From NCBI GenBank assembly GCA_964535385.1, contig CAZHSY010000008.1, forward strand, positions 6,474 to 30,473: 24,000 nucleotides of DNA, given 5' to 3'. Source of the stretch: an uncultured Candidatus Saccharibacteria bacterium. Lineage in GTDB: Bacteria > Patescibacteriota > Saccharimonadia > CAILAD01 > GCA-016700035. The notes under the pieces were generated by a model. It was not told the DNA's origin and searched no databases. It worked only from the letters and a program-made list of their open reading frames with translations. Shown piece by piece: positions 8,663 through 12,541 of this stretch. The position numbers were made by a program, and so were the translations under genes. Numbering within the stretch: position 1 is the first letter of the stretch; each line of letters opens with the position of its first letter.

Positions 8663-8702
8663 AATAAAAAGAAGAACCGCCACGGGGTGAGCCGTGACGG
8701 TT
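8663..8702 (-). terminator. rho-independent terminator closing the accessory block
   Basis: On the minus strand, AACCGTCACGG-CTCACC-CCGTGGCGGTT forms an 11-bp stem with one G.U pair and is followed by CTTCTTTTTATT. It begins 17 nt after the stop of the 85-aa ORF. Confidence 0.7.
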
Positions 8703-8718
8703 GGGGGGTAGAACGAGA

Positions 8719-8976
8719 TCAGGGTCGGTAGCGATCCGGATCATACGGCTCTAGCTCATCATGCGCTCGACTCTCAAGCGCCCGCATGATGCGGAAGAGC
8801 AGGGTCAGCGCCATGAGTCCCATCAGGCTCGCTACGTATGCCAAGATGGCGTAGGGGTCAGCGGTGATGATGCCGAGGCCGAAGACATGCAGGCGTGCAC
8901 CGGCGATGAAGATGATGACCAAGGTGACAGAGATGAACACTCGGAAAGAGATTTGCAAAGTACGGAAGTTACGCAT
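8719..8976 (-). CDS. hypothetical small membrane protein (85 aa, two predicted TM helices, charged C-terminus)
   Basis: I start it at ATG 8976, preceded by GGAGGTG. The track start at 9102 would read through the conserved hairpin module. Sequence: MRNFRTLQISFRVFISVTLVIIFIAG...ILAYVASLMGLMALTLLF...DELEPYDPDRYRP. Confidence 0.6.
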   Translation of the reverse strand: MRNFRTLQISFRVFISVTLVIIFIAGARLHVFGLGIITADPYAILAYVASLMGLMALTLLFRIMRALESRAHDELEPYDPDRYRP

Positions 8977-9030
8977 ATTCATCACCTCCAGGTGAATCGT
9001 CGGCTTGCGTAAGAGAGCCGGTTGAGGATC

Positions 9031-9100
9031 TTCCCCACCAGAGGACACAGACAATATGGACTCTGGTGGAGTCCCGACACTCAAAGGAGAGTGTCGGGAC
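9031..9100 (-). promoter_or_regulatory. double-hairpin leader module, copy B (54 nt upstream of the 85-aa ORF)
   Basis: Minus strand: GTCCCGACACTC-TCCTTT-GAGTGTCGGGAC then TCCACCAGAG-(13-nt loop)-CTCTGGTGGGGAA. It shares identical stems and junction with copy A at 9831-9896. Confidence 0.6.
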
Positions 9101-9122
9101 AAGGTGAAGGGATCGGCAACCG

Positions 9123-9791
9123 TCAGCTGACGAACAGCTTGACGCGGCTGATGAACTTGCGATGCTGATTGACCGCGTCGTTGTCCACCAAGATCCGTTG
9201 GCGCAATACCTCGCCGAGCATGACAGCCAGCTGCTCGTCCGAGAAGGACAGATACTGGCCAAGCTCGAGTTGGTGGTTCAGACCCCTCGGAAAACTACTC
9301 TCCGGTAGCATGCCAAGGAGTCGCAAGGCGCCAACGGAGAGGTACTCCCAGTCACGTTGCTTGAGCGACACCTCGCTCGGCAGCAATGCCAGGCCGTACT
9401 GGTCGAGAGCTGCCTCGATGACATCGAGACTCTTCTTGGCGATTCCGCCGGAACCCTCGAGCTCTTCACGCGACATCCAGCTGAGCTGGCCAAGCGTGGT
9501 GAAGCCACAGCGACTGAGCGTGTTGCGAATCCGACCGTCGAGTGCAGGCGACAACGGAAATGGATTATCGTTGATGCGCGGCTTGGCAGCCAAGCTATCA
9601 TCGACATCCGAGATGCTGTCACTGGTCGCAACACCACCCCACTCCTGTGACATGGTGAAGTCGACTTCGACTCCTGGCAGTGATTTCAGGTACCCAACGA
9701 AGGCGTTGAGATGGTCGAAGTGCTGCTGGACGAGTTCGGAAGCCCGGACGTTCTCGCCCGAGATGCGGATGTTGATGAGGAACGCAGGCAT
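9123..9791 (-). CDS. hypothetical protein (222 aa) with an RNA polymerase alpha-subunit C-terminal-domain-like helix-hairpin-helix
   Basis: I start it at ATG 9791, because the track start at 9950 overlaps the tmRNA 3' end and module A. LDGRIRNTLSRCGFTTLGQLSWMSREELEGSGGIAKKSLDVIEAALDQYGLAL aligns with my memory of E. coli alpha-CTD ([53 protein letters not shown]). Confidence 0.7.
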   Translation of the reverse strand: MPAFLINIRISGENVRASELVQQHFDHLNAFVGYLKSLPGVEVDFTMSQEWGGVATSDSISDVDDSLAAKPRINDNPFPLSPALDGRIRNTLSRCGFTTLGQLSWMSREELEGSGGIAKKSLDVIEAALDQYGLALLPSEVSLKQRDWEYLSVGALRLLGMLPESSFPRGLNHQLELGQYLSFSDEQLAVMLGEVLRQRILVDNDAVNQHRKFISRVKLFVS

Positions 9792-9830
9792 GCGATCCCT
9801 TTCGGTAGTAGGTACATAACTTAGCAGGGT

Positions 9831-9896
9831 TTCCCCACCAGAAGGCATAAAGATTATGAGCTCTGGTGGAGTCCCGACACCCAAAGGTGTCGGGAC
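9831..9896 (-). promoter_or_regulatory. double-hairpin leader module, copy A (5 nt after the tmRNA 3' end, 39 nt upstream of the 222-aa ORF)
   Basis: Minus strand: GTCCCGACACC-TTTG-GGTGTCGGGAC then TCCACCAGA-(loop)-TCTGGTGGGGAA. Confidence 0.6.
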
Positions 9897-9901
9897 AGTC
9901 G

Positions 9902-10697: not shown

Positions 10698-11585
10698 TAA
10701 CGCCGGGCTCAGAAGGCCGGCGAAGATGCCCGAGGCGCTATTACTCCGCGCGTGGCGGACGCTGGTGATCGAGGCCGAAGCCTACAGAAGATCGCCAGCG
10801 GCACACTCGGGCTACGAGCCTGTTTTCTACAAACAAACTCGTGCGAGCTTAGTGTTCCCCTTTCGTGGGATCGGAGCCTTTCAAGAACCGATCAGAGAGG
10901 GAGGGAACACTATGTTAAAACCGTTGGGGCCCTCTTGTCTGCCTTTTATTTCCTACCACTCTCGTGGTCACGCCCGAAGACGTAGCACTGTTGCTCAGTG
11001 CAGGCGCAGCCCAGTAGTTATCTCCCATGCGACCAGAATCTAGGTCACGATGCACATCACTCGAGAAACCATCAAGGCCTCCCGCTTCAGAACATCCCAC
11101 GCCTCTGGCGTAGACAACGGCTAGCGAACGTACCAAATTGCGTAAGAAATGCACGACGTCCTGGACGCCACACATAAGAGCCCGCAAAATGGCCTTACCT
11201 AGAGAGAATTGGCTCTATACTCTTTTTGCCTACGTCATTGAGTAGATTGCTCCACTCGACCCCCGGCAACCGTGCACCTACAGTGCAAACCCCACAATGT
11301 GGAGCACTCGATGACACTCGAGCTTCGGTGGTTTCTTACTGACATGGGTATTGAGACAACGAGGACGTTCACACGCCCGCACTTCTCAATTACTTCCGTC
11401 AGATTTAATTCTCTCCAGTGAACTATCCGGAAGTTTTCACTCCCAGCGCGGGGGCCATAATCTTGTCACCGCGCTGGAAGCAAAAGGCTTCCAGAAATGT
11501 TTCCATTTTTAAGTACGAGACTGATGTTTTTACATTGATACACTCAGGCGCTCTTGTAGTATGAAACCAGCGCGGGATTCAAAAT
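10698..11585 (-). ncRNA. long ORF-free, hairpin-dense region downstream of the hammerhead (candidate structured RNA, class unknown)
   Basis: No ORF here has an SD or a plausible composition. Minus-strand hairpins include AGGC-UUCG-GCCU (10772-10783), ACGUC-UUCG-GGCGU (10970-10983), CCAC-GAGA-GUGG (10956-10967), GCACUG-AGCAA-CAGUGC (10985-11001), the nested GUGUUCCC..GAUCGG..CCGAUC..GGGAACAC (10852-10910), and CGCUGGCGAUC..GAUCACCAGCG (10760-10800). Confidence 0.45.
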
Positions 11586-11636
11586 GCAGTTTCGTCCTTT
11601 TGGACTCATCAGCGAGGACATACATCCTCGGACTGC
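11586..11636 (-). ncRNA. hammerhead ribozyme, type III topology
   Basis: Minus strand: GCAGUC | CGAGGA-UGUAUG-UCCUCG CUGAUGA GUCC-AAAA-GGAC GAA ACUGC. The parts are stem III GCAGU/ACUGC, the GUC cleavage triplet, stem I hairpin (6 bp), core CUGAUGA, stem II (4 bp with G10.1-C11.1) and core GAA. Every invariant core nucleotide is present. Confidence 0.88.
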
Positions 11637-11817
11637 TCCCCTCTGAGAGCAGGTATAACCTGCCCCAGACGGGTGTGAGCTGCGCAGGTTGCGCTTGGAA
11701 GCCACATCTCACTGGCTTGAGGTTAACGTCCTGCCTGACGGGTTGGTGTGTATCGGCTTCTTTTTTCTCACCGATAAACTTCTGTTGCCAGGCACCACCA
11801 TGGTGCCCTGGGTGTCG

Positions 11818-12018
11818 CTACTCGCGATCCCATACCTCCCAGTCGCCTGGATGCTGCTGGTCGAGCTCCTTGCAGAGCTCCAAGTAGGTCTGATCAGTGA
11901 TGATCAAGACGTCTCCGGTCGAGAGAACCTCGACGAGCCAATCGCACCGCTCGAGCTGCACCGTTGTCCCACTGCTGGGACGCGGCGTAGCACAGCGACG
12001 AGTGAACTTGCCTGCCAT
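11818..12018 (-). CDS. hypothetical protein (66 aa)
   Basis: ATG at 12018 is preceded by a strong SD AAAGGAGGTG. Sequence: MAGKFTRRCATPRPSSGTTVQLERCDWLVEVLSTGDVLIITDQTYLELCKELDQQHPGDWEVWDRE. No family recognised. Confidence 0.6.
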   Translation of the reverse strand: MAGKFTRRCATPRPSSGTTVQLERCDWLVEVLSTGDVLIITDQTYLELCKELDQQHPGDWEVWDRE

Positions 12019-12065
12019 ATCACCTCCTTTCAGAGGTCTTGTAGGAGTGGGAACGGAAGTGGTGA

Positions 12066-12413
12066 CTACACGTAGCCACTGGGCGTGTACGGCTCGGGGT
12101 CGTCAGGCGACTCCTCGGCAGCACACACGTGGCCGTCGATGTGGCCGAGCTGGAAACCGACACGGAGACCGAGTCGCAACATGCAAGCTGCAGCAATCTC
12201 CGGTTCAACTCCCGAGTCACGGAAGAGACTGTAGAGGGCGGCAGCCGCAGGACTGGCGACCTCTTCGATCGCAATGATCTTGTCATCCTCGTCGGACAAC
12301 AGCAGCGCCGGCAGTGCCTCCTCGAGGATGCGGTCGATGATCCCCTCATCGCGAGCGACCCTGTAGGCCGCCAGCTCAGAGGGGTTGAGTGGGTTGTCTG
12401 TGTTGGTGCTCAT
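12066..12413 (-). CDS. hypothetical acidic protein (115 aa)
   Basis: First ORF after the 12513-12541 promoter. Its composition is natural compared with the antisense ORF 12129-12458. The SD is weak. No family recognised. Confidence 0.5.
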   Translation of the reverse strand: MSTNTDNPLNPSELAAYRVARDEGIIDRILEEALPALLLSDEDDKIIAIEEVASPAAAALYSLFRDSGVEPEIAAACMLRLGLRVGFQLGHIDGHVCAAEESPDDPEPYTPSGYV

Positions 12414-12474
12414 TTTCTAAACCACGCTTGGGCGATCCAGAAAACGAGCACCAACTGAAATAAAGGTTCTTTTT

Positions 12475-12492
12475 TGTTATGAATTCATAACA
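12475..12492. promoter_or_regulatory. 18-bp perfect palindrome (putative operator) between the promoter and the first ORF of the accessory block
   Basis: TGTTATGAATTCATAACA is perfectly self-complementary. It lies 21 nt downstream of the -10 element on the minus strand. Confidence 0.45.
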
Positions 12493-12512
12493 GAATCGCA
12501 TAACTGTATCGG

Positions 12513-12541
12513 AGTGTAGCAGAATATGAGTTTTTTGTCAA
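12513..12541 (-). promoter_or_regulatory. sigma70-like promoter of the accessory block
   Basis: On the minus strand: TTGACA (12541-12536), a 17-nt spacer, then TACACT (12518-12513), in an AT-rich stretch. Confidence 0.55.

Follow-up and report, generated by a model that had tools for sequence, protein, structure and literature searches.

A candidate ssrA operon of Saccharibacteria that contains a hammerhead ribozyme, repeated two-hairpin modules and the tmRNA gene

Hammerhead ribozymes of bacteria flank single genes in the polycistronic RNAs of phages and prophages, and they cleave in vitro (Perreault et al. 2011, PMC3088659). Here, we describe a locus that resembles these prophage arrays in some respects and departs from them in others. 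It is a 3.9-kb block, entirely on the minus strand, at positions 8663-12541 of a 24,000-nucleotide stretch of DNA from an uncultured Candidatus Saccharibacteria bacterium (assembly GCA_964535385.1, contig CAZHSY010000008.1, positions 6,474 to 30,473 of the forward strand), which we call the window. Saccharibacteria live as episymbionts and have genomes of about 1 Mb. As in the prophage arrays, a canonical hammerhead core stands between small co-oriented genes of unknown function, a regulator gene adjoins, and cleavage would be expected to cut a long RNA into gene-length pieces. Tandem hammerheads are a further likeness, seen in L049 and L148 (L-numbers designate the related loci that we compared, and L029-L148 are 120 metagenomic loci fetched by the same hammerhead core). 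Yet, the present locus is chromosomal and syntenic, lacks an integrase and contains the cell's own transfer-messenger RNA (tmRNA) gene, ssrA. Here, the ribozyme ends a conserved leader of 240 nt, another conserved structured RNA element (SE) is present, and repeated two-hairpin modules do most of the spacing. We found no paper in the literature linking hammerheads with loci of Saccharibacteria or Patescibacteria, or with tmRNA expression.

Our preferred reading, which we regard as reasonably probable, is that the block is a lineage-specific ssrA operon of a Saccharibacteria (TM7) clade. It would hold a fixed place between the gene of a TrmB-family regulator and rpmF, and would be read as one transcript punctuated by the hammerhead, by tRNA-type processing and by the modules. 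An earlier, sequence-only reading of this DNA had proposed a co-oriented minus-strand unit around ssrA. The analysis bears this out: one conserved promoter, one terminator, five open reading frames (ORFs), the hammerhead, a palindrome, three modules and the tmRNA lie where they had been placed or close by (Table 1). Among GTDB representative genomes, the TrmB-like neighbour protein led us to 14 loci in metagenome-assembled genomes of Saccharibacteria type, with 48-85% identity. The gene order leuS-TrmB-(2.4-4.7 kb)-rpmF-nusB-nudix-rnc is conserved in L005, L009 and L013, and parts of the block are also found in L006, L007, L010, L012, L101, L116, L149, L152-L155, L162 and L170. Relatives with 50-70% TrmB identity show the same architecture at the same TrmB-rpmF site, i.e. 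promoter, ORF1 and ORF2 or a substitute small ORF, hammerhead, modules and tmRNA. Since relatives keep both the gene order and these parts, we conclude that the block was inherited in place. The other genes of the window have core functions (SMC, RNase III with rnc at 6417-7142, LeuRS, a Mur ligase, Ddl). Look-ups by exact protein sequence find this DNA in two Logan assemblies; it is present in the runs SRR10761721 and SRR10761723.

Table 1. Features of the block, with positions in the window (z, folding compared with shuffled sequences; GC3, GC fraction at third codon positions; aa, amino acids)
Feature	Position	Strand	Description
Sigma-70-type promoter-like site	12541-12513	minus	TTGACA-17-TG-TACACT, 10/12 consensus matches
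Perfect 18-bp palindrome	12492-12475	minus	TGTTATGAATTCATAACA; read from the sequence, just 3' of the -10
17-bp hairpin	12402-12455	minus	5' untranslated region (GGUGCUC) with ORF1 start codon region (AUGAGCACC); 94% complementary
ORF1	12066-12413	minus	115 aa; acidic, fast-evolving; GC3 0.75
ORF2	11818-12018	minus	66 aa; homologues 66-76% identical
Structured leader	11639-11817	minus	4-5 hairpins; first hairpin followed by GGCAACAGAAG; runs into the hammerhead
Hammerhead, type III (Rfam RF00008)	11638-11584	minus	48.7 bits (gathering score 48.5), E 4e-8
Variable structured spacer	11028-11583	minus	z -4.5; includes conserved 17-bp hairpin 11494-11429
SE, conserved structured RNA element	11027-10703	minus	325 nt; z -4.7
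Module C, type 2	10625-10700	minus	P1 hairpin then CAACCAGAG...UUGUGGCUGGGA; leader of ORF3
ORF3	10263-10562	minus	99 aa; small, beta-rich
tmRNA (ssrA, Rfam RF00023)	10253-9899	minus	118.8 bits, full-length model; also called by ARAGORN
Module A, type 1	9826-9897	minus	P1 hairpin then CUCCACCAGAG...CUGGUGGGGAA; leads ORF4
ORF4	9123-9791	minus	222 aa; central RNA polymerase alpha-CTD-like helix-hairpin-helix domain
Module B, type 1	9026-9097	minus	Leads ORF5; followed by a hairpin holding the Shine-Dalgarno sequence
ORF5	8719-8976	minus	85 aa; two hydrophobic segments
Intrinsic terminator	8702-8675	minus	11-bp stem and T-run; end of the unit

Both ends of the unit are well marked. The -35 TTGACA and the extended -10 TGnTAnAnT of the promoter are invariant or nearly so in 11 related loci. 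At the site of the palindrome, an inverted repeat GTYA-N8-TRAC is retained in relatives and its two halves co-vary; the element may serve as an operator or, in the RNA, form a 5'-terminal hairpin. The box complementary to the ORF1 start, CTGGTGCTCAT, is also conserved in relatives. The block was said to hold no other clean terminator, and this stands: the sole other minus-strand match, at 9074-9058, is the P2 hairpin of module B, with a T-poor tail. The conserved promoter of rpmF (8652-8624) comes after the terminator, and the stretch 8657-8598 is conserved in L005, L009, L013 and L154. Within the block we found no conserved internal promoter, in a scan for sigma-70 consensus sites, and no conserved internal terminator.

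tmRNA genes normally have their own promoter. This favours another account, in which the tmRNA, the small genes and SE are independent neighbours, each with its own unrecognised promoter, whereas the modules are ordinary terminators or stabilisers and the hammerhead is a relic. The confinement of our promoter scan to the sigma-70 consensus leaves room for such promoters, and L005 and L013 manage without a hammerhead. Yet, only 9 nt separate the stop codon of ORF3 from the 5' end of the tmRNA, and only 2 nt its 3' end from module A. The modules lack a T-run and are followed by a Shine-Dalgarno (SD) site and a start codon at a fixed distance, and no conserved pair of -35 and -10 boxes is seen in the alignments of SE or of the modules. 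The account of the hammerhead as a relic is also at odds with the covariation of its stems in 12 loci. We thus find it very improbable that these are independent neighbours.

The sequence of the hammerhead, GCAGUC / CGAGGA-UGUAUG-UCCUCG CUGAUGAG UCC-AAAA-GGA CGAAAC UGC, holds an intact CUGAUGA / GAAA / GUC core and an A15.1-U16.1 pair, and cleavage is predicted after GUC, at about 11631. The ribozyme is found at the same place in at least 12 loci, where orthologous copies score 40-56 bits and the core is invariant in 12 orthologues. When these 12 sequences are aligned, 95.6% of the cells are paired and 9 of the 15 pairs show a compensatory change (5/6 in stem I, 1/4 in stem II and 3/5 in stem III, which is open-ended). 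None of 500 shuffles reached this level of covariation, and slid registers did not come close. Across the 12 loci the stems co-vary, but the core and loop 1 (UGURUR) keep their sequence, from which we conclude that the hammerhead fold is under selection. Stem I exceeds stem II by two pairs, and in type III hammerheads a stem I longer than stem II often goes with a loop-loop contact (PMC3088659). Among the 120 metagenomic loci, 12 have a TrmB-family gene within a few kb of the hammerhead, in tandem or divergent orientation, and the many orphan hammerheads of metagenomes thereby gain a testable context. Two or three tandem hammerheads are found in L036, L049, L067, L068, L070, L071, L083, L084, L129 and L148.

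The ribozyme forms the 3' end of a stretch of about 240 nt that starts right after the stop codon of ORF2, the rest of it being the structured leader. Positions 11808-11578 are 81% identical to L010, and the RNAalifold consensus of the leader, built on eight sequences, has 46 pairs of which 18 are compensated. The leader matches no Rfam family at E up to 5-10. Conserved in eight loci is a hairpin with GGCAACAGAAG(U) behind it, which stands just past the ORF2 stop (11782-11795 in the window). This motif recurs 3' of the lipoprotein gene in L100, at about 10670-10690, and it may be a second, shorter punctuation signal. We also considered an 'OFF' hairpin competing with stem III. It was seen in the window, L006, L007, L009 and L010 but not throughout, a different upstream hairpin being found in L101, L149 and L155; RNAalifold prefers an extended stem III and the claim was dropped.

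The tmRNA itself shows the acceptor stem GGGGCCG / CGGCUCC with a G3:U70 pair, a T-arm, and an internal tag frame with its stop. The tag is most likely APPIIAA*, at position 75, to be compared with GVPKIIAA in L013, and the tag DSAWRPVA proposed by ARAGORN is probably wrong. In L012 and L116, too, this program failed where Rfam detects a tmRNA. The gene lies in the same unit in L005, L012, L013, L116, L152 and L154. In L116 a hammerhead stands 195 nt upstream of the tmRNA, and in L034, a distant Patescibacteria contig, one stands 312 nt upstream of a tmRNA-like tRNA-like domain. This argues against the linkage between ribozyme and tmRNA being an accident of this genome. Besides the window, a regular-expression screen of 120 loci, many of them on contigs too short to tell, showed this linkage in L012, L034, L116, L149 and L155 only. 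If the block is one transcript, its hammerhead would to our knowledge be the first to be tied to tmRNA expression. As for L034, the RNA in question is 70 nt long (2959-3028) and has an acceptor stem with G3:U70, a D-like region and a T-arm, with no mRNA or pseudoknot part (65 bits for the Rfam tmRNA model); it may be a mini-tmRNA made of the tRNA-like domain only.

The third recurrent element is the two-hairpin module. Modules A and B are 57-nt direct repeats with 84% identity, and module C shares their two-hairpin design. By pattern search and alignment we collected 25 module copies in Saccharibacteria loci, every one of them in the sense orientation of its array. They consist of a P1 hairpin of variable sequence, a linker of 2-3 nt, a long P2 hairpin and a short GGGGA...UCCCC hairpin. 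The conserved lower stem of P2 reads CUCCACCARAG / CUYUGGUGGGG in type 1 and CCCAACCAGAG / UUGYGGYUGGG in type 2; it is 91.6% paired, with a covariation score of 0.214 vs 0.116 in shuffles. About 55 nt after type 1 modules there is a small co-varying hairpin holding the SD sequence (AUCAC-GGAG-GUGAU, GUCAC-GGAG-GUGAC or CCAC-UGGA-GGUGG), and then the start codon of a lipoprotein, of a protein with two transmembrane segments or of an ORF1-like protein. Type 2 is followed by CCGAGCCGAAAGGCA..AUG and by the gene at the ORF3 position, and copies orthologous to module C are found in L005, L007, L009, L012, L013, L149, L152, L154, L155 and L162.

Modules also lie directly 3' of structured RNA genes: of the tmRNA in the window and in L116, of tRNA-Lys in L116 and of an odd tRNA in L100. 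The latter (10565-10641, minus strand) is a tRNA-like gene with an 11-nt anticodon loop, which ARAGORN reports as 'tRNA-???', and it stands between two cassettes with the module directly after it. The final module of L100 is directly followed by a terminator, with no gene. The copies of one genome have similar P1 sequences, unlike those of other genomes, a pattern suggestive of duplication or gene conversion. L049 has a TrmB of only 33% identity, and there the small membrane-protein genes are separated by modules and hammerheads in alternation. The modules match no Rfam family at E up to 5-10. We infer that they are intercistronic punctuation, and they might act as processing sites, 5' stabilisers or translational control elements.

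Between the hammerhead and module C lies a region of about 0.9 kb, which had been taken as a whole for a long structured RNA. Both of its halves do fold better than shuffles (Table 1), but only the 325 nt at the 3' side, i.e. SE, are well conserved. In the spacer, conservation is limited to the first ~70 nt after the ribozyme and to the 17-bp hairpin, the middle being variable. Matches of the 0.9-kb region to relatives by tblastx fall in all six frames, which argues that it is conserved at the nucleotide level and is not coding. The idea that it is a decayed copy of the lipoprotein gene found there in relatives was rejected for lack of tblastn similarity at E < 0.1. Homologues of SE were found by nhmmer in L007, L010, L153 and L162, and partial ones in L152, L005 and L013. 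The consensus built on four sequences has 63 pairs, with 96.4% of the cells paired and 20 pairs compensated; this level of covariation is reached in 0 of 500 shuffles, and slid registers give 2-4 compensated pairs. SE has no Rfam match at E up to 10, and in IMG/VR the patterns of SE and of the module gave chance matches only, without the structure. SE thus appears to be a new structured RNA, for which four to five sequences are good but not final evidence.

We then come to the genes that these RNA elements separate. The five ORFs had been said to match no recognised family apart from a helix-hairpin-helix motif, and indeed only ORF4 gives a family signal; PADLOC and NCBIfam return nothing else for the five. 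Homologues of ORF1 or ORF2 are found in L007, L009, L101, L149, L162 and L170. Those of ORF1 have only ~30-34% identity, at the same position, in L007, L009 and L101, and ORFs of 108-109 aa occupy this position in L149 and L162. An acidic ORF follows a module in L100 and resembles ORF1 by eye. The ratio of non-synonymous to synonymous divergence (dN/dS) of ORF1 is ~0.7-0.8, and it has no match in Pfam, PHROG, NCBIfam or PADLOC. ORF2 (dN/dS ~0.19-0.26) and ORF3 (dN/dS 0.14-0.37; six homologue clusters with 72-84% identity) are under purifying selection. In L007, L010 and L013 a Zn-ribbon-like small ORF takes the place of ORF2. The AlphaFold model of ORF3 is confident (pLDDT 83) but matches no fold in PDB. 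In L013, the gene at the ORF3 position, directly upstream of the tmRNA (12386-12733, 115 aa), matches PADLOC Unk_01 (E 4e-18), a defence-associated family described as an unknown small protein 'sometimes fused to CARF'.

ORF4 carries a domain of ~65 residues with the helix-hairpin-helix fold of the C-terminal domain of the RNA polymerase alpha subunit (alpha-CTD), by sequence and by structure. Its score with Pfam RNA_pol_A_CTD (PF03118) is 23.0 bits, just short of the 23.8 cut-off, but the profile of the ORF4 family finds alpha-CTD chains of PDB at E 1e-21. With Foldseek, its model (pLDDT 81) aligns with alpha-CTD structures over 62 residues at TMt 0.75-0.83 and root mean square deviations of 1.1-1.6 A. 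It is not rpoA, a possibility rejected for want of the N-terminal domain and for the length of 222 aa. Homologues of full length form only two clusters (56% and 41% identity) among 1.8 billion representatives, and we found no relatives in the GTDB representative genomes. Gene callers use a start giving 241 aa, and the 222-aa form is without an exact database record. ORF5 has homologues with 39-44% identity in L007 and L009, with the same module in front.

Which genes are present depends on the species. L154 goes from ORF3 to the tmRNA and on to rpmF, without ORF4 and ORF5. A lipoprotein gene of ~120 aa is present in L149, L152, L153, L155, L162, L009, L013, L100 and L116 and absent in the window, where SE is joined straight to module C. 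Judging from these sequences, the genes between modules behave like cassettes that turn over from species to species, and together they make up an accessory pool rich in GC3.

These elements can be arranged in a single scheme. The conserved promoter would give rise to a long minus-strand transcript reaching the terminator, and the TrmB-like neighbour protein (gene at 13162-13911), a candidate regulator, may bind the inverted repeat just 3' of the promoter. The transcript would open with the two small ORFs, the start codon of ORF1 being locked in a hairpin, and would continue into the leader that ends in the hammerhead. Self-cleavage in vivo would split the ORF1-ORF2 mRNA from the downstream RNA and leave the latter with a 5'-OH end. 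This downstream RNA would consist of SE and then of small-gene cassettes, each headed by a two-hairpin module. The tmRNA, between two cassettes, would probably be released by RNase P and by 3'-end processing, since the neighbouring features leave no space for a separate promoter. The modules would punctuate the remaining cistrons.

Several observations weigh against this reading and should be kept in mind. The hammerhead of the window is just 0.2 bits over the Rfam threshold, and the orthologues of L009, L093, L100, L101 and L116 are below it, with a weak stem III. L005 and L013 have no hammerhead though they keep the promoter, the modules and the tmRNA, so that the unit can dispense with the ribozyme. 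The lower stem of P2 is so conserved in sequence that few of its pairs vary (3/11 compensated), and the role given to the modules is putative. Internal promoters of other than sigma-70 consensus type could exist, and we infer the single transcript from sequence features. Finally, GC3 excess and low synonymous divergence in the small genes fit gene exchange as well as they fit codon bias.

This last point leads to the origin of the block. The sequence-only reading had called it GC-rich and saw in it an accessory unit, possibly a degraded or novel element acquired from a high-GC donor. The accessory character holds, the ORFs lacking family assignments and being GC3-rich (0.71-0.87 vs 0.46-0.61 in leuS, TrmB, rnc, nusB and other backbone genes). 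Yet, hand counts had overstated the contrast for the block as a whole, which has 56.0% GC vs 52.1% elsewhere in the window, and the window reaches 55.9% at its right end (19817-24000). The non-coding parts are at backbone level (0.527 in the 0.9-kb region and 0.535 in the tmRNA) and the tetranucleotide distance of the block is unremarkable. An AT-rich boundary was correctly seen at 12420-12720 (35.9% GC). The GC3 excess is also found in the homologous small genes of L007, L009, L010, L013 and L149, and is therefore a standing property of the gene pool and not the mark of a fresh import. Import of a degraded or novel element from a high-GC donor is also contradicted by the architecture kept at the same TrmB-rpmF site in relatives. 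The sequence-only reading had named, as its refutation, close relatives having the block with backbone-like composition and housekeeping annotation. It is refuted by half on these terms, since relatives carry the block, but with neither such composition nor such annotation.

One might still speculate that the block is what remains of a mobile element at ssrA, or a place where such an element lands, and is now a domesticated or decayed mosaic. Its small GC3-rich genes, hammerhead and modules would then come from phage- or island-like DNA that recombined repeatedly at the tmRNA and tRNA genes of Saccharibacteria. The GC3 of the ORFs, with relatives alike, agrees with this view. So does synonymous divergence from the homologues of the window genes, as the proportion of synonymous differences (pS) of ORF2 and ORF3 is 0.32-0.60, well under that of the adjacent TrmB gene, which is saturated (0.73-0.77). 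The differences in cassette content between close relatives, the extra GC3-rich genes near TrmB in L010 and L149, and the defence-associated family at the ORF3 position of L013 also fit, as does the frequent presence of bacterial hammerheads near integrases and prophages (PMC3088659). Further, two relatives show duplications. In L005 the last ~65 nt of the tmRNA recur at 5210-5276, 100 nt 3' of the gene. The two tRNA-Lys genes of L116 (2032-2103 and 2590-2661) lie 558 nt from each other, and behind each come a module and a small gene. These duplications look like footprints of recombination at tRNA and tmRNA 3' ends.

Nevertheless, neither the window nor the related loci examined hold an integrase, a recombinase or a phage gene. 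That the window lacks an integrase and a duplicated ssrA 3' end had been noted from the sequence, and it is confirmed by Pfam and PHROG scans of the ORFs of the block and the genes of the window, and by blastn with the last 80 nt of the tmRNA. The whole block has no blastn match in 50,697 phage records and PHROG scans gave nothing meaningful, so that a phage origin was rejected. The promoter, ORF1, ORF2 and the hammerhead are upstream of the tmRNA, out of reach of insertions at its 3' end; insertion there thus fails to explain a block that extends on both sides of the gene. In addition, species whose flanking genes have reached synonymous saturation still have this architecture in common. Origin of the block from a mobile element is in our opinion unlikely, although, with small genes turning over like cassettes, a weaker reading as an 'accessory hot-spot' survives.

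The surroundings of the block show other peculiarities. Extra GC3-rich ORFs are found around the TrmB gene in L010 (11425-13286), L149 (1625-2185) and L162 (1599-2120), with GC3 of 0.74-0.90 in L010 and L149, and one has a J-domain-like N-terminus by eye. Hence, the leuS-TrmB-ssrA neighbourhood accepts accessory genes. In leuS (14589-17477) a NUDIX domain (PF00293, E 1e-13, residues 379-501) is inserted after the editing domain, and the leuS products of L002 and L149 are listed with the same domain. A perfect promoter, TTGACA-17-TATAAT (13126-13098, minus strand), heads ~450 nt in the interval that separates TrmB from the block. The stretch 12624-13126 contains sequence blocks conserved in L007, L009, L013, L149 and L162 and its end is a perfect palindrome of 24 bp (12624-12674). 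Rfam gives no match, and a 72-aa ORF within the stretch belongs to no family that we could find; the stretch looks like a separate conserved small RNA gene.

What can be learned from this locus? About 2 kb of its 3.9 kb are conserved non-coding RNA around the tmRNA gene, in spite of a genome of ~1 Mb. SE, of 325 nt, and the module are two candidate RNA families that Rfam 15 lacks, and covariation supports both. The locus further encodes a set of small proteins, fast-evolving and secreted or membrane-bound, which are plausible factors of host interaction or defence in a poorly understood phylum.

The comparison with known systems depends on which part of the locus is considered. In ssrA islands and prophages, as here, accessory genes of deviant composition adjoin the tmRNA, and the duplications of the tmRNA 3' end in L005 and of tRNA-Lys in L116 add to the likeness. 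Yet, islands of this kind are recognised by an integrase, a 3' repeat and absence in relatives, and the block has none of these. Conserved parts of the block lie upstream of the tmRNA too, and its core is present at the TrmB-rpmF site in many relatives, only individual cassettes being variable.

Integron cassette arrays and clusters of attC sites lacking integrases (CALINs) are also made of co-oriented small ORFs of unknown function, separated by imperfect palindromic repeats of ~70 nt. In both cases the repeats of one genome are alike and unlike those of other genomes, one promoter lies upstream of the array, content is variable and composition deviant. However, no IntI integrase was found here, and the R''/R' boxes (RYYYAAC/GTTRRRY) of the attC consensus are not visible by eye in the 25 aligned modules, no search with an attC covariance model having been made. 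Unlike attC sites, the modules have ribosome-binding sites at a fixed distance, and G-U pairs on the sense strand point to a role at the RNA level. The resemblance is probably one of layout only. One might go further and imagine that modules, hammerhead and embedded tRNA or tmRNA make up an undescribed cassette system of Patescibacteria. The modules would be recombination joints at the DNA level, by which small accessory genes could be exchanged beside tmRNA and tRNA genes without a linked integron integrase, and processing or translation signals at the RNA level; promoterless newcomers would be expressed from the resident TrmB-controlled promoter, and SE would be a new large RNA of the system. 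We regard this as decidedly unlikely on present evidence.

The closest parallels in mechanism are the RNase III hairpins of T7 early mRNA, the tRNA punctuation of mitochondrial transcripts and the synthetic RiboJ insulator. There, too, a structured element, tRNA-like unit or ribozyme between cistrons sets the ends of mature RNAs made from one precursor, and a hairpin remains at the new 5' end. These are analogies of mechanism only, with no sequence relationship to the block. If read as a single transcript, the block would offer a natural example of several mature RNAs being made from one precursor by the joint work of a self-cleaving ribozyme, tRNA-type processing and a repeated hairpin module.

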